From a bacterium (GTDB lineage: Bacteria; CSSED10-310; JAFGSJ01): a stretch of 64,000 bases of DNA. The stretch is taken from contig JAFGSJ010000004.1 of NCBI GenBank assembly GCA_016934675.1, positions 12,799 to 76,798 on the forward strand, read 5' to 3'. The notes beneath the pieces are model-generated. The model searched no databases and was not told where the DNA came from. It worked only from the letters and a program-made list of their open reading frames with translations. Below are positions 1 to 18,217 of this stretch, in pieces; positions within the stretch are counted from its first letter, which is position 1, and each line of letters begins with the position of its first letter. A program made the translations under genes and the position numbers.

Positions 1-1632
1 TGACGTGCACAGCCATTCGTTATTATGCTGTCCGCCATTCTCAGTCCAGAATGAATATGGAGTGGGATAGATCACTTCGGTCCAGGTATCAGTCTCGAAA
101 TCATACCAGTCAAGATGTAAACCGTCGCTGGTGCCCGCCGCCATATTTTTTGTCTTGAGATCGAATTTGACTTTGAACAGTCCGTGACCGCCGATAGGAA
201 CCGGGTTGATCATGGTCAGAATAGCTTTCGGTTCCGTTCCGTTCAGGGTAAATGAACCGGAGCCGATGGCTCCTTCGGGATTACAGCCGGAATCGTCACT
301 ACTATAGTTCCAGGTCCCGGCAGCATTGACCGACCAGTTTCCATTGGTAACAGGATCATCATCGAGCCAGATCGGATCAAGTTGTGGTACATCGTCAGTA
401 TCATTCCCCCAATATGCTCTGATCTCGACATCGGGCCAATCCTCAATAATCATGACGGGAAGGACAAACTGGTTTTCCGTGAAGAACCAGGTCATAGTGA
501 TCATGCCATAATAGGCACCGGTTCCTCCAGATACTGTCTGGATGTCAGCCGGATCTGCCAGAATATTGATGACCCAGTTGCCGCCCTCTGGAAGCGTTTC
601 GATCACATAGCCCTGATCTCGCTGGAATCCATCGGCGGGAAGCCTTTCGTCCAAATCGATATTCGAGATTGCCGCCACGGACGTATTCATCACCGGATTT
701 CCGATGACAATCTTGTTGCCGAGAGGCCAGCGAGCGGCAGGTATGTCCACAATGGGCACATCAAGACTACCCTGTGATACTTGATAGAGCCAATCTTTCA
801 ATTCCCGGGCCGCAAATTCATCTTCGGTTCCGAGATCAGCATAGATTGTCCAGTTACCCTCAGGTGCTACTTCAATAATCTGCTGGCAATTTGTGAAGAT
901 ATGCTTGGGTTCAGGCACGATGGCAATCTCATCGTAAGGCCAGGCAGAAGCACAATCTTCATAACAGTTTAAACAGTTTTCTTTTAATTGTTCGCAGTAG
1001 CCGTTTCCACAAGTGTCTTGCGCGGGAACACAGAAAAAGTCCTCATCACAGGCACAATCCGGTGGAAAATAGAGATTCACGCTCTTGCAGATGGTATTTT
1101 CCGGACAAAGCGGGACCAGTGGATCACACTCGTCCAACTCACCGATATCCAGACACCAGCCCTCAAAACAAACCTGCCCTTCACGGCATTCATCATTACT
1201 GTTGCAGCCGCAGTCTTCTGGTAGATTACATGAATTCTCATATGTTTCATTGCAGTCACCGTTGAGATTAAGACATATGAATTGATCGAGAGCAGGGACA
1301 CAATATCCTTCATAATACTCTCGATACTGAATATTTGTCAGTCCTCGACAGCACGGTGGCGATAATGGACCGCGCAACCCTCCTTCTGGGATACAATCAA
1401 CAATTTTTGCAGTATCAGCCTTACTAGGGTTGATTGGATCAGGGCTATCCTTTACCTTATCATTCGAAGGCGTTACCATGGCGATGTCTGGACCGAACAA
1501 TCCGTCAACCCCCTTCTGCATCGCCCCGTTTTCAATCCTGACTTCGACCGGGCTTATTTCTCGGGCAGCGCTGAAAACAGGGAAAAAACACACAATACAC
1601 CAGTACATCACGAGAAAGGTTTTAAACCACAT
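1..1632 (-). CDS. Secreted multidomain protein, partial (runs off window start): signal peptide, Cys-rich region, GH20/GH84 domain-2-like region, probable beta-sandwich/CBM
   Basis: Not in ORF track; hand translation gives an open frame from ATG at 1632 (RBS GAGGAGG upstream) to base 1. MWFKTFLVMYWCIVCFFPVFSAA signal; about 23 Cys incl. CGNGYCEQLKENCLNCYEDC; then IVPEPK...QGYVIE...GAYYGMIT...LPVMIIEDWPDVEIR, typical of the hexosaminidase domain-2/barrel junction. Confidence 0.8.
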   Translation of the reverse strand, partial: MWFKTFLVMYWCIVCFFPVFSAAREISPVEVRIENGAMQKGVDGLFGPDIAMVTPSNDKVKDSPDPINPSKADTAKIVDCIPEGGLRGPLSPPCCRGLTNIQYREYYEGYCVPALDQFICLNLNGDCNETYENSCNLPEDCGCNSNDECREGQVCFEGWCLDIGELDECDPLVPLCPENTICKSVNLYFPPDCACDEDFFCVPAQDTCGNGYCEQLKENCLNCYEDCASAWPYDEIAIVPEPKHIFTNCQQIIEVAPEGNWTIYADLGTEDEFAARELKDWLYQVSQGSLDVPIVDIPAARWPLGNKIVIGNPVMNTSVAAISNIDLDERLPADGFQRDQGYVIETLPEGGNWVINILADPADIQTVSGGTGAYYGMITMTWFFTENQFVLPVMIIEDWPDVEIRAYWGNDTDDVPQLDPIWLDDDPVTNGNWSVNAAGTWNYSSDDSGCNPEGAIGSGSFTLNGTEPKAILTMINPVPIGGHGLFKVKFDLKTKNMAAGTSDGLHLDWYDFETDTWTEVIYPTPYSFWTENGGQHNNEWLCTS

Positions 1633-1930
1633 AATATCCTCCTCTGCAAAAAAGAATTGAGTAATTCTAAATCCCCCCGTATTGCTATAAATCCCTTTTT
1701 CTGGTGATGTGTAATTTGTAACAGATATAAATAAAGCTGTCAACTATTTTTATTACAGGAGGAAGTTTCTAGCATTCACTATATAAGAATATAGCCTTTT
1801 CACAGGATTAACCAAGAATGTTAATCCATTCAGTAATTGTATGGTCTTCAGATTCCTCACTTTCTGTGCTATGCTATGATAACTCTGAGGGAGCACCGGG
1901 ATCACGATATACGTATCACAGGTAGAGCAG

Positions 1931-2258: not shown

Positions 2259-5200
2259 TCAGGCAATGAGTTGTTCGGATTGGGCCTTGTCGAGTTCGAG
2301 TGATATGATTCGTGAGATACCCGGGTCGGCCATGGTCACTCCGTAAAAGACATCAGCGACCTCGACCGTATGTTTCGAGTGGGTGATCATGATGATCTGA
2401 GATTTTTCGGACATTTCCTTGAGGAGCCGGGTGAATCGGGAAGTATTGGCTTCATCGAGGGCGGCGTCGACTTCATCGAGGAAGCAGAGTGGGCTGGGCC
2501 GATAGTAGAAGATGGCGACCAGGAAGGCGATAGCAGTCAGGGCTTTCTCGCCGCCGGACAGCAGGGAGAGAGTCTGCAGTTTCTTACCGGGTGGTTGGGC
2601 CACAATCGTAATGCCCGTTTCGAGTAGATCGTCTTCCTGTTCAAGCTGCAATTCAGCGAACCCACCGCCGAACAGACGCTGGAACAGGGCCTGGAAGTTA
2701 CTGTTGACTTCGTCGAAACAGGTGCGGAAGCGCAGTTCGGATTCACGATCAATTTTCAATACGGTTTGCTGCAGGGTCTCGATTGCTTCGAGCACGTCTT
2801 TTTTCTGGGTAGACATATCGTCGATTTTTGTGCGAATGGCTTCATATTCCTCGGGTGCGGAGAGATTCAGGTCATCATAACCTTCGAGCCTTTTCTGACA
2901 TTGTTCGATTTTCTTTTTGAAGGCCAGTTCTTCCTGTTCATCAGCCAGTTGAAAGCCGAGTGATTCGATGTCCTGAGGGCTGCATTTGAGTCTATTGGTG
3001 ATATCTTCGAGGACATGAGCCAACTGGAATTCGAGAGATCTTTGATTGACTTGTGCTTCGGCATAGGTTTCTTTGAGCGGTGTCACTGTTTTTGTCAGAA
3101 CGCCTTCCCATTCGGTTTCCTTTTCGACCTGGGTCTTGACATCCTGGAAGTGGTGCGTGGATTGGTCGATGTCTTGATTGATGGTTTCGAGTTCGCCATG
3201 CAGCCCTTTCAATTTGCTATCCGTATCAACGATGGTCTTTTCCAGGGTCGTTTTCTGCTGGTGGGCCTCGACGATTCGGCGTTCATTGCGGCGGGCCTGG
3301 TTTTCAAATTCTTCGAGCATGTCCTGATGGGTCGCCAAGCTGCGTTGAGCATTATCGACTTTTTCTTTGAGCGAGGTCCAATTGACCCGGACATCGGTGA
3401 GTTCTGATTGGACCCGTTCCTTTTGTTCATTGAGTTCAGCGAGTTCTTCATCCAGGGCGGTGGTAATGTTTTCGAGTTCGAGTCGGTAGTTTTCGGCTTT
3501 GGCCAGGGATTGTTCGAGGTTGGCTATTTCGTTCCGATTATGTTCCAGATCGTAATCGAGCTGTTCATATTCGAGCCGACTGACTTTCAGGGCATTTTCG
3601 TATTGGGAGATATCGCGTTGAATACTTTCGAGGTCCTTGAGCAAGCTTTGTTGGGTCAACTGCAGGGTGTGTTTCTGTTGTTCACAGTCATTCCCGGCCT
3701 GTTTCAATGCTTCGAGGGCCTGTTCGTAGTCGTTTTTGCGGTTTCGGACTTCTTCACAGCGGGCCTTGAGCTCGACCAGGTCATGTTCGAGCGCACCGAT
3801 TTCCTGTTTGCGGGAATAGAGTTCGATCGTCGCGGTCATTTCGCGGCCGGCCCTGATGATTCCGGATGGTTCGAGGACGACACCCTCGGTTGTGATATAG
3901 GTCAGGGCCATGTTCGACTCATGTTGATGTTCGATCGCCATTTCGAGTGACGAAGCCAAAACCATGCGTTCGAGCACGCGATCGAGAACAGGAGACAGGT
4001 CCGGGTCGGAGTTGACGTATTGCCGTAAGCGGGGCAAGCCTTCGAGTTGGTCCTGAGAACATCCGGGTTGTTTCGGTTTAATGTCCGTCGGACCGGGTCC
4101 AAGCGGCAGGAGACTGACCCGTCCCCATTCTTTTTCCTGGACAGTTTTGATCAGGGAAACAAGTTCAGCCTTATCTTCCACCAAAACAGTATCGAGACAG
4201 GTTTGAAGGGCGATAACCACAGGCAATTCATAGTCACGGTTGATCTGAATCCGATCGGTCAGAAGGGCAGGCTGCGGCCGGTCCTGTGTGCTCATTTCAG
4301 AAAGCAGGGCTTGGGTCCCGGGTGAGTAGCCCTCGAGCGAACTTTCCCGTTCTTCGAGTGACTGCAGGCGGGCTTCCTTCCTGTGTAATTCCTCGTTCCA
4401 TTTCTCGACTTCCGCGAGTAGTTCGGCATATTTATTCTCTTCAGACCGCTTTTCAGCTTCCAGTTGCCGGTGTTGATCGACCAGGGCAGCCAATCCGATT
4501 TCGAGTGTGCTCAACCGAGCTTCGATCTCGGTCTGGCGCGGCACACAGAGTTGTTTTTTTTGTTCGTATTCGTGCTCTTCCCTGTGCAGGCGGTCCTGGC
4601 GGCGATCGATCTCCTCGACTATCGAATGGACCCGGGCCATCTGCTGATTCAGTTGTGAAATGCTCGAAATCGTTTTCAGATGGTCGCGTTGTTTGCTTTC
4701 CTTGCTTTCGGTCAATTCGAGGATACGTGTGGCGATTTCCTCGACCAGGGCCTGTTTGAGCCGAACCTGTTCCTCGGCGGTCCGGGCCTGGTCGGACAGG
4801 TCTTCGAGTTCACTCTCCAATTCGGTATACGTGGCGTGGAGACTGTGCTTTTTCTCCTGCAATTCTTCGATTTCGTATTCAAGATTTTTCACTTCCGCGG
4901 CCAGTTCGACCAGACGGGTCTGAGAAAAATCAATATTTTGCAAAGACAGGTCCACGTCTTTTTCGAACGTAGACTTGCGTAAATGCAGGCCATTCAATTC
5001 GGTCCGAAGTTGTTCGAGCTGTTCTTCCTTGAGGTTTTTATCCCGGACACTGGTCGCGATCTGCGTTTCAAGCTTGGTGATCTCATCCAGCAGGGCAGTA
5101 CATTTTTCAGTGACCTGTTTGATGTCAGCCTTCATGGCCGACAATCTGAATGAGGCATACTTTTTTTCGAGATCGATCAGAACGGCTTTGTCCTGCAGAT

Positions 5201-11158: not shown

Positions 11159-13219
11159 TCATACAACGGTCATCACGGTCTGAAAGGTCTCGGAACGATT
11201 TCCGACCCGATCGGTCAACTGGACTTTCAATACATGTCGTCCCAGAGCGGTGCCCAGTGGTATCTGAATCTCGAGCCAATGCCGGTCCGGATCATACTCG
11301 GCCTCGAGGGCTTGATCGTCGAGACTGATTTCCATGTGTTCATCATCAATGCCGGTGCCCTCATCTCTGACCGTTAATCTGATCAGGGCCCCACGTTTGA
11401 CCGAAGCGGGCTTGAAACCTGCCTGGGCTTGAATGGTGGGCGGCACAAGGTCCAGAAAGAGTGCAAATGTACTGAGATACCTGATCTGGGCTTCGAGGAC
11501 CATCGCGTTCGGACCGGGCCGTTGACTGGAATACTGATAGCTCCAGTAGTGACCGTTTTCATAATACTGATATATTCCGAGTTTGGTCAGGTCAGACGAG
11601 CCCGTATCCGGAACCAGAAAGGTCAAAGTCGCAGTCCGGTCGAACGGTGTTCCGGCTGGGGTGAAGCTCACCGCCTGACCGAACGGGACCAGTTGTCCCT
11701 GGGCCTTGGCTTCGAACCGCTCGAAACCCAGATAGAGATGATCATACAAGGCAGCCTCGGGAATATACAAGACCAGATCATCATCTTTGAACCGGGCGGT
11801 CCTGCCTGGCTGAAAATGATAAAACATCCGGTTGTGCTCGAATAAAACCCGATTTGGATCAAGGGGATCTACGACCTTAATCTGAACCGGACCGGTCTGA
11901 TACGCACTCAGATCAATTATGCCCATGATCCGGCCCGGTCCGAACTCATACAGCGGCACTTTGATCAAAGCGTGACGCTCAGCATCGGAACAGAGTATCA
12001 GCGGGGCAAACTGGTCCGTGTGAGTCCGTTCAGCCTCGAACACATGAAACGAACCAAAATCCTTCACAGACACCGATTTTAAGACAGGTATTTCTGTCTG
12101 GCCCGGTCCGGAAATCCGGTCGCGGAAAGAAGACAGATCAGTGCGAATTCTCAAGGGTAGTTTCAGGGTTGCGTGGTTCCCGGCATAGTCCGAAGCTACG
12201 AATTTCAGCAAGACCTTTTCTTGATGAAGGGTCTGCGTGTCAAGCGAGACTGTCGTTGTAGGCGAGGCCGACAGAAAGGGTGTCCCGGGCACAGAACCAT
12301 GCCCGAATTTATGGATATAACGTGTCGGTGAATAACCGGATGCAATGAGATCGTAGAGCAATCCGTTCCGATGATTATTCGAGTAAGTCATGGCATCGAA
12401 CCGTATTCGTTTGATCAGAACATCATCGCGGCATAGATCGAGTTGATAGATGCCGACTTTATTTGCGGCCCCAATCGTATCATGGACATCAACAGCGAAT
12501 TCGATCGAACCGGTGACCACGGGCAGCTTTTGTTCGGTCATTCCGGCAAGTTGGCTGGTAGTCAATACCAGGGTCTCGGGCGAAAAATTCACAAAGGAGC
12601 CGGCTGAGATCGGTTTGAGTGACACACTCTTGAATGTCGGAACGGTCGTGTCCTTGAAAGCAGGTGTCAGATAGGGCAGGGGATTGATCGGCTTGTCTTC
12701 ACCCTGTCTGAGCTCGAAGTGAAGGTGAGGTAAACCAGCACCTGTTTCACCGGACCAGGCGATGAGCTGGTTTTTGGTTACCGGCACCGACAGAAAGATA
12801 TTACCCGGATATTTCCTCTTTTCCAATTGGGCCTGGGCAACATGGCTTTCGAGATGCAGGTAGTTTTCCTCGAATCTGAGCAGGTGGGCATAGACGCTGA
12901 CCAGGCCGTTTGCGTGTTTGATATACAAAGCTTTCCCGTAACCACGTTTCTGAACATTGAGGCGATAGATCGTTCCGGACTCAACAGCTCGGACCTCGAG
13001 TCCGGTTTGGCCGCCTGTTTTGAAATCGATCCCGGCATGAAAATGATTGTTGCGGAATTCACCAAATGAGGATGACAGGCCGATATAGGAACTCAATGGC
13101 CACTGCAGTGTGGGGAGTGGAGGTGTTGGTCCCGCAGCCATTAATACAATGATCAGACACACCAGCACAGTCAGAAAGATCTTAAATGTATTTCCCGGTA
13201 ATTTTGATTTTTCAGCCAT
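11159..13219 (-). CDS. M23 family metallopeptidase with C-terminal Ig-like domains
   Basis: N-terminal TM/signal, HAGIDF, YAHL, PHLHFE motifs. Confidence 0.9.
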   Translation of the reverse strand: MAEKSKLPGNTFKIFLTVLVCLIIVLMAAGPTPPLPTLQWPLSSYIGLSSSFGEFRNNHFHAGIDFKTGGQTGLEVRAVESGTIYRLNVQKRGYGKALYIKHANGLVSVYAHLLRFEENYLHLESHVAQAQLEKRKYPGNIFLSVPVTKNQLIAWSGETGAGLPHLHFELRQGEDKPINPLPYLTPAFKDTTVPTFKSVSLKPISAGSFVNFSPETLVLTTSQLAGMTEQKLPVVTGSIEFAVDVHDTIGAANKVGIYQLDLCRDDVLIKRIRFDAMTYSNNHRNGLLYDLIASGYSPTRYIHKFGHGSVPGTPFLSASPTTTVSLDTQTLHQEKVLLKFVASDYAGNHATLKLPLRIRTDLSSFRDRISGPGQTEIPVLKSVSVKDFGSFHVFEAERTHTDQFAPLILCSDAERHALIKVPLYEFGPGRIMGIIDLSAYQTGPVQIKVVDPLDPNRVLFEHNRMFYHFQPGRTARFKDDDLVLYIPEAALYDHLYLGFERFEAKAQGQLVPFGQAVSFTPAGTPFDRTATLTFLVPDTGSSDLTKLGIYQYYENGHYWSYQYSSQRPGPNAMVLEAQIRYLSTFALFLDLVPPTIQAQAGFKPASVKRGALIRLTVRDEGTGIDDEHMEISLDDQALEAEYDPDRHWLEIQIPLGTALGRHVLKVQLTDRVGNRSETFQTVMTVV

Positions 13220-13321: not shown

Positions 13322-13870
13322 ATGTTTATAATGAAAAAGATGAAAAGGTCCACTGAACGAATGATACAATACCTGGTGTATATGCAGGTCCTGATTGTCT
13401 TGGCTTTCCTTATGGCTTGCAATCAAAGCGATACGTCCGAGAGTGCTTCAGAGCTTTTCGTTCAGTTGAATCATGGTGATTGCAAGGAGTTTGGTGCAGA
13501 CGATCAGGCGGCATCCGCGGGACCGTCTAACCATCAGGATTGTCTCGAGATACAGGCAAACGGGAACGTATTACAGTTGCGGCATCTCAATGCGGGTTTC
13601 AATTGTTGTCCCGCCCAGATCAATGCAGAAGTGACCCTGGAAGGTCCCATACTGACGATCTCTGAGAGTGAAAGCGAGCAGGGGTGTCATTGTCTGTGTT
13701 TGTACGATCTGGATTATACTATTCAGGGGTTGGGTCCTGGGATATATACGGTCCGGGTGGTGGAGCCCTATCTCGAGCCCGGGGATTCAGTCCTGGAATG
13801 CCAGTTCGACATGGATGGCTCGTCATCGACCTCCTGCTGTGTTGACCGTCATCACTATCCCTGGGAATAA
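13322..13870 (+). CDS. Cys-rich hypothetical lipoprotein
   Basis: Lipobox LMAC; ten further Cys incl. NAGFNCCP and GCHCLCLYDL; exact start uncertain. Confidence 0.75.
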   Translation: MFIMKKMKRSTERMIQYLVYMQVLIVLAFLMACNQSDTSESASELFVQLNHGDCKEFGADDQAASAGPSNHQDCLEIQANGNVLQLRHLNAGFNCCPAQINAEVTLEGPILTISESESEQGCHCLCLYDLDYTIQGLGPGIYTVRVVEPYLEPGDSVLECQFDMDGSSSTSCCVDRHHYPWE

Positions 13871-14025
13871 CATCCTCACATTGTACTTGTCTTTCAGACT
13901 CAAATCGAGTATACCTGATATTCGTCTTGTTCAGGTGAACAGTGAGACATGTTCATCATTCTCGTAATCATCATCTATCACAAAGAGAAATGATCAGAAA
14001 AACCTTTTTTCGAAAGGTGGGTGAA

Positions 14026-15390
14026 ATGACTCAACTCGTATCAAAAATCAACAGTATGTTCCGTCGGATACTCGAGGACCATCCCAATGCGCACCAGGTC
14101 TATCGGGAGCTCAGTGAGGGCATGTCCGCCAAGGGGTGCACTTTTGGCAGTGGACCGATGCCGTTGTATGTGAAGCCGTATTTCATCGATGGGGCCCGCA
14201 TGCCTGAGATCCGCTGGACGACCGAGGTATTGATGCGGATCATGAACAAAAGCGCCCAGTTGTATTTCAGCGATGATGCCGCCAAGCCATTGTTTTATCT
14301 TTCACCCGCAGAGACGGAACTGATCGACGTACCCGTGGGATATCATGATCGGATCCAGATCACCCGCAATGATGCTTTTCTGACGGATGACACATTATAC
14401 TATATCGAGTTCAATGCCGACAGCCCGGGCGGGCCGATGTATTCAGACGTTCAGGGCGATCTTATTCAACAGTCGGACGTTTTTGTCGAATTGTGCAAGC
14501 ATTTCACCGTGGGCCGCGACCTGATCATGTGGCAGATTCTCAGAATGCTCATGACCTGCTACAAAGAATGGGGTGGCAGAAAGGAGCAGCCGAACATCTG
14601 CATCACTGCCGGTCCCGAAAGCGGGACTGCTCCCGAATTTCATGCGATCATAGCCTGGTTGCAGTCACTGGGATTCAAGGCGGAATTTTGCGGGACAACT
14701 CATTGGACCTACACAAATGGCCATTTACGCACACCGAACGGTCTGGAACCGGATGTGATTTATCGGCGAGGCTGGATTGGAGACTGGATCGAGCATATGG
14801 ACGGAATCAAGCCGATCGTAGCCGCCTTGCGTGACCGGAAAGCCTGTATGGTCAATCCGCTTTCCTCGACCCTGGCCTCGAATAAATCGTTATTGGCCGT
14901 TTTGCAGCGTCCGGATATCAAGAAACTATTTACGACCGAGGAGCAGAAAGTCATCGAGACCTATCTGCCCTGGACCCGGGTTTTCGAACAAGGCAAGACT
15001 GATTTCCACGGTAAGAAGATTGATCTCCAGGAGTATGTCGGCAAGCATAAGGACACTTTTGTGCTCAAACCGATCGATTCCTATGGCGGTAAAAATGTCA
15101 TCGTCGGTTTTGCCACGGACCCAGGGGCCTGGGCTGAATGGGTCGACAAGGGCTGTGCTCCTAAAGGCAAGTTCGTTGTCCAGGAAGTTGTTCACATTCC
15201 AGAAGAAGAGCTACCGGTCTTCGTCGATGAAAAATTGCAGTTCGTCAAGAAAAAGATAAACGTGAATTTCTATTGTTACGGGGGCATCTATACCGGCGGT
15301 GTGGTCCGCTCCTCGGACAGCCCGGTCATCAATGTTCATCAGGGTGGCGGTATGACCCCAATAATGTTTGTTGATGGCGAACGCCATTGA
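14026..15390 (+). CDS. Circularly permuted ATP-grasp (glutathionylspermidine-synthase-like) amide ligase
   Basis: RNDAF, IEFNADSPGG, VIYRR, NKSLLAVL, LPWTR, VLKPIDSYGG, VQE; start moved to MTQL after AAGGTGGGTG. Confidence 0.85.
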   Translation: MTQLVSKINSMFRRILEDHPNAHQVYRELSEGMSAKGCTFGSGPMPLYVKPYFIDGARMPEIRWTTEVLMRIMNKSAQLYFSDDAAKPLFYLSPAETELIDVPVGYHDRIQITRNDAFLTDDTLYYIEFNADSPGGPMYSDVQGDLIQQSDVFVELCKHFTVGRDLIMWQILRMLMTCYKEWGGRKEQPNICITAGPESGTAPEFHAIIAWLQSLGFKAEFCGTTHWTYTNGHLRTPNGLEPDVIYRRGWIGDWIEHMDGIKPIVAALRDRKACMVNPLSSTLASNKSLLAVLQRPDIKKLFTTEEQKVIETYLPWTRVFEQGKTDFHGKKIDLQEYVGKHKDTFVLKPIDSYGGKNVIVGFATDPGAWAEWVDKGCAPKGKFVVQEVVHIPEEELPVFVDEKLQFVKKKINVNFYCYGGIYTGGVVRSSDSPVINVHQGGGMTPIMFVDGERH

Positions 15391-15464: not shown

Positions 15465-17255
15465 ATGCGATTACAGATCAAGCCGGGCTGGGTGCCATGG
15501 TTTTTACCTACGATTTTGTTCCTGGTCTTTGTTGGAGCACTGTTGTGTCCGGGATGTAGCGATGATGAGAATGATCCTGATATTATCGTCGATCTCCGGG
15601 CGGATGTGAATCGCAACGGGACGATTGATTTTTCTGATCCGACTGAAGACACTGACGAGGACAGTTGGGATACGACTCATGGCGCCATCTTTCTGGCGAA
15701 CATAGATGACGATCAGGAAACATGCCCAAATACGGGACCTGATCAGGAACTGGCCGCCTGTCATGATGCGATCGATGATGTGGTGAATGGAGAGAACGAT
15801 CTCCTGGATATGGCCCGCCTGCAAACGGCACCTTTTCACGATGCAACGGATGATGCCAACGGCAGGCTCAGTATAAGTGAACCGGGCAGGGCCTTTGTGC
15901 GGCTGTTTCGCAAAACAGGCGACAGCTATACGATCTATAGCCCGGAAGAAGAGCTATCGGTAACCGATCTTCGTCACGGGATCGAATTCAGGCTGGAAGC
16001 CTTGGATTTCGTGCGAGATAGTTCGGTCTGGGATGGTTACCTCGATGTTACCTTTAGCGTGACCACAGAGGGTATGACTTACGAGGACCTGGTCCGATTG
16101 CGTGTCTCGCCTCTGATTTTTCATCATCACCTCGACAGCATCAGCACCGCTTATGTGACTGCTTTTAACGACCAGGCCTCGATTACATTTCGCTCCGATC
16201 TGCAGGCGGCTTTGTCTGCTGCTTCAGTCGAAAATCCGCTCTATGAATTCAGGAGCATAGGCGATCAATGGACCCAGGATTTCATGGAAACGGCATACAT
16301 GTCCATGCCCGCTGAGGGAGGTCAGCATATCATCAGGGTCAATTTCCGCTCGGCGAATTTCACGAACAACAAACTGCGCAACGCAGGGCGGATCGTGTTT
16401 ACCCAGTTGCGTGGTCCGGACATGGCCGGGGCGGTCTGCTATGATCCGGCCCATTCGGATTATATGGATTCCTTGAACAGTTTCGGGAATCTGGAGGTCA
16501 TCCCACCGTTCTCTCATGCCGGCCAATCCTGGCCATTTGGCCGAATTATCCGCGGTAGCACTGCAAACTACTATCCGGACCAGTTTTTTGAGACCATGCT
16601 TGCCTCACAACAGATCCAGCTACCGGTCTCGATTGACACGGAATGGCTAATCGTTGGTCATGTCGATGAAGTATTCAGCTATGTTGAAGTGGAATCTGAC
16701 CGGGGTTGGCTGCTCCTGGCCAATGATCCGATTCTGGCTATTGCCATGCTGCAGGATTTGGAGGCAGCCGGATACGGTGATGTGTTGATGTTCGAGGGGA
16801 TGAGCTGGATGACGGGCCAATCAGCCGAGATTTCAGTTTCGCAAGTCCTATCCGATCCGGAACTCATGGACGCCAATGTCTGGGCCGCGATCATGGTTGA
16901 TGAAATGAAAACCACGTACCATGAGATCACCGGCATCGGCGCGGATGAGATAGTGCCCATACCATTCCTGCATCAGGAAGTCTATGGCTACTCACTTGCC
17001 TATCAGCCGGGCACGACGAACTCGATCATCATTTCCCGGGACCACTTCGCCACACCGGCAACACACGGTCCGGTCATTAACGGTCTTGATATTTTTCGGC
17101 AGCAATTGCAGGACACTCTGGCTGCTTCTGGGATCACAACGCATTTCGTAGAGGACTGGGACTTATACCATGCCCTCTGGGGTGAGATACACTGCGGATG
17201 TGCGGTGAGCCGCACTGTTCCTAACGACATAATCTGGTGGGAGAGTGATATATGA
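15465..17255 (+). CDS. Protein-arginine deiminase (animal/PADI type) lipoprotein
   Basis: Lipobox CPGC; GAIFLANIDDD, DQWTQD, SFGNLEVIPP, WLIVGHVDE, GEIHCG match PADI motifs with all catalytic residues. Confidence 0.92.
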   Translation: MRLQIKPGWVPWFLPTILFLVFVGALLCPGCSDDENDPDIIVDLRADVNRNGTIDFSDPTEDTDEDSWDTTHGAIFLANIDDDQETCPNTGPDQELAACHDAIDDVVNGENDLLDMARLQTAPFHDATDDANGRLSISEPGRAFVRLFRKTGDSYTIYSPEEELSVTDLRHGIEFRLEALDFVRDSSVWDGYLDVTFSVTTEGMTYEDLVRLRVSPLIFHHHLDSISTAYVTAFNDQASITFRSDLQAALSAASVENPLYEFRSIGDQWTQDFMETAYMSMPAEGGQHIIRVNFRSANFTNNKLRNAGRIVFTQLRGPDMAGAVCYDPAHSDYMDSLNSFGNLEVIPPFSHAGQSWPFGRIIRGSTANYYPDQFFETMLASQQIQLPVSIDTEWLIVGHVDEVFSYVEVESDRGWLLLANDPILAIAMLQDLEAAGYGDVLMFEGMSWMTGQSAEISVSQVLSDPELMDANVWAAIMVDEMKTTYHEITGIGADEIVPIPFLHQEVYGYSLAYQPGTTNSIIISRDHFATPATHGPVINGLDIFRQQLQDTLAASGITTHFVEDWDLYHALWGEIHCGCAVSRTVPNDIIWWESDI

Positions 17256-18217
17256 TGAAGATGAACTATTTCATGGCTCTAGTGCTGACCATGGTGGGAC
17301 TATGTTCTGTTCAGAACGGCGTCGCTGCTTTTCAATCCGGTGCTCTCATCGCACTTTCGGCGCTCACTCCGTCAGAACAGGATGCACTCCTGCTGGCAAT
17401 CAAACAAGCCCGAACCGACGAGCCTGACGCATTTGCCGCTGTCAAACAGGTCCGGGACAACCTGGCCGAGCTCGATGCCGTGAAACGTGGTCGTCTGGCT
17501 GTGATCACCCCGCTCCTGAAAAGTATAGGCGAAAAAGCACTCTATCCGCTTTTGGAACATATCGCAGTCAGTGATCCCGGCCCAACGGGCTTGACCACGA
17601 CCGCCTGGTTGGCCTGGCAGTTGGGACTACTCGAAGCTGTGGGCATGCTCCGAGATGGGCGGACCGCGCCTGTTCTGCGTGCCGTAATCCAAAGCGAACA
17701 GCACGAGCTCGAAGTGTTCGAGACCGCGGTAGCGGCGTATGCCAAACTCGCGACCGACCGGGTCGTGCAGGACTTACTCGAACTGTCTTCCTGTCCGGAA
17801 CCAAAACGTGCATCTGTTCTGGCAGGCATGGGCTTCTGTCGCCGGCTGGACATTGCCCGACACCTGGCCACGACACTTCAAGAAAATCCGGACCAAAACA
17901 CTGCCCTGATCGTGGCCCGGGCCCTGGGCAGGATCGGGTCGGCCCTGGCCTGGCAGACGGAAATCATCGCACTCAGCGGTCAAGAAGGTCCGGTCCGGAC
18001 CATGGCGGCCCGATCTCTGGTCGAAGCATACCTACGCTTCAGCCCGGAGGTCCAAAAGATGATCATCCGTTCTCTTCTCATGATTGATCATCCCGATACC
18101 TTGGACTATATTCAGGAACTCAGAATGACAACAAACCCTGATCGATATCAAGAACTCGATCAGCTCATCGAAAGGTTCCAGAAGAGCCCGTTACGGCGCA
18201 TCCGGACCATACCCTGA
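17252..18217 (+). CDS. Secreted alpha-helical (HEAT-repeat-like) hypothetical protein
   Basis: ATGA overlap with PAD stop; signal peptide; repeated LLEAVGML / ARALGRIG helical motifs. Confidence 0.7.
   Translation: MMKMNYFMALVLTMVGLCSVQNGVAAFQSGALIALSALTPSEQDALLLAIKQARTDEPDAFAAVKQVRDNLAELDAVKRGRLAVITPLLKSIGEKALYPLLEHIAVSDPGPTGLTTTAWLAWQLGLLEAVGMLRDGRTAPVLRAVIQSEQHELEVFETAVAAYAKLATDRVVQDLLELSSCPEPKRASVLAGMGFCRRLDIARHLATTLQENPDQNTALIVARALGRIGSALAWQTEIIALSGQEGPVRTMAARSLVEAYLRFSPEVQKMIIRSLLMIDHPDTLDYIQELRMTTNPDRYQELDQLIERFQKSPLRRIRTIP

Follow-up and report, generated by a model that had tools for sequence, protein, structure and literature searches.

The 64,000-nucleotide stretch of bacterial DNA analysed here (the window; positions 12,799 to 76,798 of contig JAFGSJ010000004.1, assembly GCA_016934675.1) carries, on its forward strand, a gene for a protein-arginine deiminase (PAD) whose stop codon is overlapped by the start of a gene for a HEAT-repeat (alpha-solenoid) protein, and comparison with related loci indicates that the conserved unit is these two genes, the PAD and its HEAT partner. 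Our best explanation of the locus as a whole, to which we assign a probability of about 0.5, is that an exported two-domain PAD forms a 1:1 complex with a plug-like HEAT partner. Of everything at the locus, this partner, overlooked in an earlier note on this DNA, tells us most. The features of both genes are given below in window positions, with the evidence for each.

15465..17255, + strand: PAD gene, a two-domain protein-arginine deiminase of 596 amino acids (P0001); open reading frame, PF03068, PAD4 match by phmmer, Foldseek
15465..15557, + strand: PAD residues 1-31, an export signal; R2 and K6 in the n-region, then a hydrophobic core, LLCPGC and acidic SDDENDPD
15588..16076, + strand: PAD_M-like middle domain, residues 42-204, containing N79, D81, D83, D101, D112 and D115 (Ca3/4/5 equivalents) and the cysteine pair C87/C99; weak PF08527 match, PAD4 alignment, residues kept in 81/81 rows
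16077..17243, + strand: PAD_C catalytic domain, residues 205-593, containing W269, D272, R305, H399, D401 and C577; PF03068, residues kept in 81/81 rows
17193..17195, + strand: codon of catalytic Cys577 (PAD4 C645); PAD4 alignment, frame checked, named in the predicted interface
17252..18217, + strand: HEAT-repeat (alpha-solenoid) partner gene, 321 amino acids; PF13646, all-helical AlphaFold2 model, conserved adjacency, complex prediction
17252..17255, + strand: ATGA overlap of the partner start with the PAD stop; sequence, and also present in relative L102
17252..17329, + strand: partner residues 1-26, a Sec-type signal peptide; the N-terminus is hydrophobic and ends in GVAA
17486..17491, + strand: partner Arg79-Gly80 codons, in an exposed interhelical loop, with Arg79 a candidate active-site-directed arginine; conservation, interface, DSSP

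The PAD gene and its HEAT-repeat partner

The open reading frame named in the earlier note, 15465-17255 (+), was recovered with exactly these coordinates and encodes 596 amino acids. In a Pfam scan, residues 205-593 matched PF03068 (PAD) almost end to end, at positions 2-395 of its 395 (E = 5.4e-88; 296.1 bits, where the cut-off is 25); PF08527, the second profile suggested for checking the family, matched residues 42-182 and was the only one of the two to fall short (E = 7e-4; 19.7 bits against a cut-off of 24.8). A phmmer search of PDB sequences aligned human PAD4, from its residue 118 onwards, with PAD residues 42-593 (E = 1.2e-47), and PAD1, PAD2, PAD3 and PAD6 were matched likewise. Similarly, the AlphaFold2 model of the PAD, built from 16 sequences (mean predicted local distance difference test score, pLDDT, 74.5), was matched by Foldseek to human PAD4 5n0z (E = 2.1e-39, TMq 0.72, 26% identity over approximately 585 columns). 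Together with the conserved acidic cluster of Ca3-5, these two alignments identify the immunoglobulin-like PAD_M middle domain despite the weak PF08527 match. Model confidence is low at 268-272, 303-315, 332-340 and 565-578, the active-site loops, which are disordered in calcium-free PAD structures. With a full-length PF03068 match and all catalytic residues intact, membership of the PADI family, as the earlier note had proposed, was confirmed, and at the level of sequence we consider the assignment of a genuine PAD secure. The note's separation of this protein from the Porphyromonas-type peptidyl-arginine deiminase (PPAD) also held, as PF04371 gave no match to the window PAD at E ≤ 0.01; NCBIfam contained no model matching either the PAD or the HEAT partner.

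The four-nucleotide overlap of the two genes is an arrangement of translational coupling, to read it from the sequence. The window's partner has a HEAT_2 match, PF13646 (HEAT_2) was matched in 36/36 partner members scanned, and the AlphaFold2 model of the partner is an all-helical solenoid of high confidence (pLDDT 93.2). Signal-peptide-like N-termini occur throughout the partner homologues listed. The two closest relatives of the partner are 60% and 53% identical to it, and their contigs match in length those that carry the two closest PAD relatives. The best-conserved residue of the partner is Arg79, present in 74/75 aligned rows with a truncated row as the single exception, and it is followed by Gly80 in 64/75 rows; DSSP analysis of the model places Arg79 in a coil (77-85) between two helices. 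Sequence and fold searches of solved structures returned generic PBS-HEAT scaffolds and designed alphaRep/armadillo binders, the best fold match (E = 7.7e-4, TMq 0.37) offering no functional lead. Three of the homologues (P0125, P0127 and P0129) are labelled 'RNase P/RNase MRP subunit POP5' by one source; on exported HEAT-repeat proteins, this label looks like an annotation error.

We pattern-scanned one genome per species, which yielded 570 confirmed PAD relatives, and used the best 80 for locus counts; almost all of these belong to Myxococcota (Polyangiaceae, Labilithrix, Myxococcaceae), and culturable carriers include Labilithrix luteola DSM 27648 and Polyangium fumosum DSM 14668. A tblastn search with the window's eight neighbouring proteins revealed a partner homologue at 74/80 loci: in 71 it starts 0-303 nucleotides downstream of the PAD on the same strand, in two (L063 and L081) it lies upstream, and in one (L060) it lies 2.3 kb downstream. 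Among the six loci without a partner, three (L019, L040 and L057) end within 230 nucleotides of the PAD, and three (L022, L030 and L032) gave no tblastn match to the partner in a 6 kb flank. In L102, which carries a 74% identical PAD, the pair is kept together with its overlap (PAD 2304-4091, partner 4088-5056), whereas both flanks differ from those of the window. Because the partner recurs at 74/80 loci, the other neighbours are not conserved, and the pair persists in L102 within different surroundings, these comparisons identify the conserved unit as the two genes.

We then sampled 251 genomes evenly across the phylum Myxococcota. PF03068 was found in 65 of them, and the partner profile (threshold E ≤ 1e-20, with nine first-look candidates scored per genome) in 34, all of which are PAD-positive (34/65 PAD-bearing genomes); among the 186 PAD-negative genomes, the nine candidates scored in each gave no partner (0/186). 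All 36 partner matches (36/36) lie on the same contig and strand as a PAD and within approximately 700 nucleotides of it, 34 downstream and 2 upstream, and two genomes (G041 and G168) hold two PAD-partner pairs each. Twenty PADs taken from partner-less genomes were only 24-30% identical to the window PAD, and most of them carry a lipobox-like N-terminus and an NHHL motif in the linker. By these sequence features, lipoprotein PADs are common in Myxococcota, and the window gene falls in a single subfamily marked out by the HEAT partner. Partner-less PADs also occur as tandem duplicates on single contigs in several Myxococcota genomes (G270:C110, G165:C16, G280:C214 and G180:C13), and genome G273 has up to six matches.

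Predicted complex and the role of the partner

We predicted the complex of mature PAD (residues 32-596; 16-row alignment) and mature partner (residues 27-321; 36-row alignment). The score was 0.93 in each of three runs, against 0.01 for the best of three controls; in a benchmark, this score was reached by 58/80 solved complexes and 2/110 mismatched pairs, a calibration that is rough here, where our own alignments were used. The runs agreed in at least 91% of contacts, with partner pLDDT of at least 92, and the predicted interface comprises 116-124 contacts. On the PAD side, it includes W269, S339, I396-G398 (with V397), L571-G573 and the catalytic C577, and furthermore helices 462-480, extending over 448-480 and 504-511, far from the cleft. 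On the partner side, it includes R79-G80-R81-L82. As the PAD4 equivalent of C577 lies at the bottom of the pocket, a contact with C577 implies an inserted partner side chain, for which the conserved Arg79 is the obvious candidate. No PAD-solenoid complex was found among the PDB sequence matches of PAD and partner, so a prediction drawn from a remembered structure is unlikely. These models support binding of the PAD and the HEAT partner as a 1:1 complex.

The mechanism that we favour would run as follows. The PAD would cross the inner membrane, where it would probably be lipid-anchored like most of its relatives; the partner would be co-translated with it, exported by the Sec pathway, and bound to it in a stable 1:1 complex with the conserved Arg79-Gly80 loop lying over the catalytic cleft. 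There, the partner would act as a substrate-mimicking plug, an inhibitor or 'safety catch', keeping the PAD latent in the producer's own envelope, where calcium would not be limiting, until release or hand-over. The arginines acted upon would then belong to proteins or peptides of the envelope, of neighbouring cells or of prey; the roles suggested in the earlier note, neutralization of cationic peptides and editing of prey proteins among them, are speculative. We favour inhibition on account of the large interface, the co-export of both proteins, and the fact that an exported PAD would not be restrained by low calcium; for the inhibitor role itself, we put the odds a little under even. Lipid attachment of the window's copy, entry of an arginine into the pocket, inhibition in preference to turnover, and the natural targets are all steps that we infer.

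The same arginine could instead be the site of modification. In this alternative, the partner is the dedicated substrate of the PAD, with Arg79 or another arginine citrullinated, the modified solenoid functional, and the PAD acting as its maturase. Arg-Gly is a context favoured by PAD4 in histone tails, and R79 is present in 74/75 partner rows with glycine next to it in 64/75; the R79-L82 loop and the catalytic cysteine both lie in the predicted interface; and the restriction of partners to PAD-bearing genomes is what an enzyme-substrate pair predicts. The interface, however, is large and extends far beyond the cleft, which suits a lasting complex better than a transient encounter, and this solenoid is not known to have a function that one citrulline could switch. 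We consider this substrate role rather unlikely.

Alternatively, the partner may be a non-inhibitory accessory—a substrate-recruiting adaptor, a scaffold, or an export or folding chaperone—with the active-site contact a modelling detail. HEAT/ARM solenoids are typically scaffolds and adaptors, the closest structures to the partner are generic binder scaffolds (alphaRep), and PAD helices 462-480, outside the pocket, make up most of the interface. Against this, W269, V397, G398 and C577, which line the catalytic pocket, are all in the interface list, and conservation in the partner peaks at an arginine of an exposed loop. We regard an accessory role as improbable.

The substrate might, finally, be a small exported peptide or natural product in place of a protein, in the manner of a Streptomyces PF03068 PAD that has been tied by complementation to formation of the lasso peptide citrulassin (Harris et al., bioRxiv 10.1101/2020.07.16.207027; this source and PMC8826395 are cited throughout from passages of their main texts). 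No precursor-peptide or RiPP (peptides that are made on ribosomes and then modified post-translationally) genes are conserved beside the module, its other neighbours recurring at 0/80 loci (six of them) or 1/80 (the glycosyltransferase family 2, GT2, gene), and not even L102, the 74% relative, has the same flanks; furthermore, the passages of bioRxiv 10.1101/2020.07.16.207027 report no link between PADs and RiPP clusters. Such targets appear quite improbable for the window PAD.

Several observations weigh against the plug-like inhibitor that we prefer. The complex score is the model's own confidence, and the result consists of contact lists and not of coordinates, so that Arg79 is a candidate for the residue that meets C577. 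The PAD residues of the interface are no better conserved than the remainder (mean major-residue frequency 0.59, against 0.64 elsewhere), and the non-conserved C-terminal tail of the partner (R316 and R318) is also in the predicted interface. The conserved Arg-Gly and the lack of orphan partners fit the dedicated-substrate alternative as well as they fit an inhibitor. Moreover, no HEAT gene was found within 2.5 kb of any of the 20 PADs of the partner-less subfamily (0/20), and since most of these have lipobox-like N-termini, an exported PAD does not in general need a HEAT partner.

We compared the pair with toxin-immunity systems, in which orphan immunity genes are common. Adjacency of the two genes is observed and binding over the cleft is predicted, and orphan partners numbered 0/186; because of this last count, an immunity protein fits no better than an obligate subunit or substrate. 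A simple immunity model is counted against by the lack of orphan partners, by the existence of the partner-less subfamily, and by the unremarkable conservation of the interface. In myxobacteria, SitA/SitI are lipoprotein toxin-immunity pairs delivered by outer-membrane exchange. The pair studied here resembles them in that the gene for a putative lipoprotein enzyme directly precedes that for a small, predicted cognate binder and in that several paralogous pairs per genome are possible; unlike them, the HEAT partner is exported, no orphan partners were seen, and the catalytic domain is that of a PAD and not a nuclease. A bolder form of the inhibitor reading combines insertion of Arg79 into the pocket as a pseudo-substrate inhibitor, a lipoprotein PAD serving as a citrullinating effector against neighbours or prey, protection of the producer's envelope by the partner, and mobility of the module between phyla; taken together, we hold this combination to be doubtful.

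Work on PADs has dealt almost wholly with calcium-gated enzymes inside animal cells, which serve as drug targets in rheumatoid arthritis and cancer. If our preferred reading of the locus is true, the partner would be a natural protein scaffold that recognizes the catalytic cleft of a PAD, and the pair would provide a first handle on citrullination in bacterial envelopes or in predation. If the effector and inhibitor roles are also true, no protein inhibitor directed at the active site of a PAD, and no interbacterial effector that acts through citrullination, would have preceded these two.

Catalytic residues, export and type of the deiminase

We mapped functional residues through the phmmer alignment to PAD4 chain 3apm_A, after checking the +3 numbering offset, and assessed conservation in an alignment of 81 rows (the window PAD and its 80 relatives). 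The catalytic residues D350, H471, D473 and C645 of PAD4 correspond to D272, H399, D401 and C577, and the substrate-binding W347 and R374 to W269 and R305; all six are identical in 81/81 rows. The earlier note had distributed the four catalytic equivalents over the motifs DQWTQD, SFGNLEVIPP, WLIVGHVDE and GEIHCG. All four are indeed present, D272 in DQWTQD, H399 and D401 both in GHVDE, and C577 in GEIHCG, whereas SFGNLEVIPP contains no catalytic residue and holds E344, the equivalent of PAD4 E411.

Calcium sites were mapped with the PAD4 ligand lists, in which E411 is a Ca1 ligand. The Ca1 equivalents Q271, E275 and E344 are retained (in 78 to 81 of the 81 rows), and the PAD4 cluster N153/D155/D157/D165/D176/D179 corresponds to N79, D81, D83, D101, D112 and D115, kept in 81/81 rows; the stretch GAIFLANIDDD, which the earlier note had likened to a calcium site, aligns with the N153/D155/D157 region. 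D319, the equivalent of the 'calcium switch' aspartate (PAD4 D388, PADI2 D389), is present in 77/81 rows. In contrast to these retained positions, the Ca2 ligands are replaced (PAD4 E351 by F273, D369 by R295 and N373 by L304), with R295 in 81/81 rows. The best explanation of this residue pattern is that the encoded PAD is catalytically competent, calcium-binding and citrullinating. One homologue in the family deserves separate mention: P0007 (682 amino acids, 53% identical) has the His-Cys of the GE.HCG motif replaced and carries a C-terminal EGF-like extension (PF07974), by which it is likely a pseudo-enzyme branch of the PAD family.

The N-terminus of the PAD has a positively charged n-region and a hydrophobic core of approximately 20 residues, followed by two candidate lipobox cysteines. 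Neither is canonical, given Leu at -1 of C28 and, for C31, Pro at -2 with Cys at -3. The lipobox, [LVI][ASTVI][GAS]-Cys ending the signal peptide, was sought with a PROSITE-style pattern that 63/81 rows passed, some of the failing rows being cut by contig ends; L005 and L015 are likely false positives arising from Cys-rich repeats, leaving approximately 61/80 relatives. The window PAD fails this pattern, which counts against the lipid anchor that we propose for it. Its C31, in turn, aligns with the canonical lipobox cysteine of its homologues P0003 (74% identity) and P0004 (64%), and textbook lipoboxes were seen in these two and in most of the 18 sequences inspected. Thus, of the lipoprotein signal described in the earlier note, the n-region, the hydrophobic core and the alignment of C31 stand and a canonical lipobox does not; the acidic patch that the note placed after the signal is present as SDDENDPD. 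We consider lipidation of the window copy slightly favoured.

Export itself has broader support. C87 and C99, which sit in an insertion absent from PAD4, are kept in 81/81 rows, as would fit a disulfide in an oxidizing compartment. The signal sequence, this conserved pair, the lipoboxes of most relatives and the Sec-exported partner together argue that the PAD is very probably exported and extracytoplasmic, the destination that the note had proposed. The locus is one of hundreds that point to a branch of bacterial PADs working outside the cytoplasm. Between lipobox and PAD_M, the homologues P0005, P0006, P0011 and P0012 have an insert of 150-300 residues, made up of Gly-rich linker and repeated Cys-rich modules, which many Myxococcota members share and which is lacking in the window copy.

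The earlier note described the enzyme as animal-type, which our results do not bear out. The cupredoxin-like PAD_N domain is absent, the PAD_M alignment beginning at residue 42, 10 residues after Cys31, with no match to PF08526; the linker strand between PAD_M and PAD_C contains HHH at 220-222, of which H221 is shared by 73/81 rows and H222 by 77/81, but H220 by merely 5/81. According to Cummings et al. 2021 (PMC8826395), a triple-histidine linker motif is distinctive of two-domain fungal and actinobacterial PADIs, in which calcium sites 1 and 3 are conserved and the loss of sites 2 and 4 is a further mark. Because PAD_N is missing, the HHH linker is present and the Ca2 ligands are lost, architecture and motifs place the window PAD in the two-domain (PAD_M + PAD_C) bacterial/fungal type and not in the three-domain animal/cyanobacterial type. 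It thus resembles the two-domain type of fungi, actinobacteria and proteobacteria as described in PMC8826395 in its lack of PAD_N, its His-rich linker, its lost Ca2 site and its complete catalytic set; unlike that type, in which the calcium-switch position is Gly in actinobacterial and fungal sequences (PMC8826395), it keeps the switch aspartate as D319, and it has an export signal, lipobox-bearing kin and a HEAT partner, which the passages of that paper do not mention. The switch aspartate is shared with the three-domain clade Ai (PMC8826395), whereas the PAD_N and Ca2 ligands of that clade are absent.

With human PAD4 and PAD1-3 (PF08526-PF08527-PF03068; 1wda, 5n0z and 5hp5), the window PAD shares the fold, the catalytic set and the equivalents of Ca1, Ca3, Ca4 and Ca5. 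It differs from them in lacking PAD_N and Ca2, in the insertion with the Cys pair, in its dedicated partner, and in carrying an export signal where the human enzymes are cytosolic or nuclear. PPAD of Porphyromonas gingivalis (PF04371), which is calcium-independent and secreted by the type IX secretion system, likewise deiminates peptidyl-arginine, is exported by a bacterium and falls within the broader guanidino-modifying superfamily, but the window PAD, as a PF03068 protein, belongs to a different family.

The bacterial PAD family is itself known. Cummings et al. (PMC8826395) counted PADI genes in 295 bacterial species, 69 proteobacteria among them, and Harris et al. (bioRxiv 10.1101/2020.07.16.207027) compiled 837 bacterial PADs with gene contexts described as 'highly diverse', their passages naming no conserved partner; here, unlike in those contexts, one neighbour is conserved at 74/80 loci. 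The Streptomyces PAD of the latter study is, like ours, a bacterial PF03068 enzyme in which the PAD4 catalytic residues are conserved, and its role in peptidyl-arginine deimination has been demonstrated (bioRxiv 10.1101/2020.07.16.207027). Main-text passages of both papers (PMC8826395; bioRxiv 10.1101/2020.07.16.207027) make no mention of export, lipoproteins, myxobacteria or a HEAT neighbour, and within the full texts searched, our literature search turned up nothing published on myxobacterial PADs or on a HEAT-repeat protein as the partner of a PAD. The partnered, exported form is therefore one for which we found no description in that literature. The earlier note had named cyanobacteria and actinomycetes as the bacterial holders of this fold; for the relatives of the window PAD, the main reservoir proved to be Myxococcota instead.

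Origin of the module and its surroundings

We examined whether the module is native to the genome that carries it. The window contig (at least 77 kb) also encodes a primary sigma factor, SMC and polyphosphate kinase; the last shares 56-66% identity with the copies in five same-phylum genomes and 43% with that in one genome from another phylum, and is thus closest to same-phylum copies, which indicates that the contig is native. PF03068 was present in 1/41 genomes examined, the window's own, and in 0/13 other genomes of the window's phylum (completeness 60-94%). We constructed a FastTree tree of 91 rows comprising the window, the 80 loci, P0003, P0004, and 8/20 partner-less PADs as outgroup, the remaining 12 having been left out; its rows are all of Myxococcota type, its supports are Shimodaira-Hasegawa (SH)-like values, and its locus rows are the 80 best matches to the query. 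The window grouped with P0003 and P0004 at support 100, P0004 being named 'candidate division CSSED10-310', and this group was nested within a Polyangiaceae-rich clade at support 96. From this nesting, the two-gene module was probably transferred from Myxococcota into the window's phylum, and the locus would document such a transfer into a sparsely sampled phylum. We also considered base composition as a signal of transfer; it is weak (PAD 52.3% G+C, partner 56.7%, window 51.4%) and adds nothing. The PAD of L019, whose contig bears the label Thermoanaerobaculia (Acidobacteriota), falls close to the window clade; it is possibly a further transfer outside Myxococcota, or a binning error.

The following neighbours lie upstream of the PAD.

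11159-13219, - strand: 686-amino-acid protein with an N-terminal M23 peptidase (PF01551, E = 4.9e-16)
13322-13870, + strand: lipoprotein of 182 amino acids; its lipobox, LMAC, is canonical, and it has several cysteines
13942-15390, + strand: circularly permuted ATP-grasp type 2 protein (PF14403, E = 4.8e-8)

We evaluated these and other neighbours as members of the unit and rejected each. The upstream 182-amino-acid lipoprotein and ATP-grasp genes, and the M23 peptidase, DegT and sugar-transferase genes, recur at 0/80 loci, the GT2 gene recurs at 1/80, and all are absent from L102. A cluster of Ser/Thr kinases was found at 26/80 loci; it was rejected as a partner because its position is variable and on either strand, and because such kinases are abundant in Myxococcota. 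Promoter and terminator scans returned no more sites than in shuffled sequence. The long C-terminal part of the 686-amino-acid M23 protein gave a weak hint of an OmpL47-type barrel (E = 0.003), and L102 encodes, at 941-1756 (-), divergently and upstream of its PAD, a second, different signal-anchored HEAT-repeat protein of 271 amino acids.

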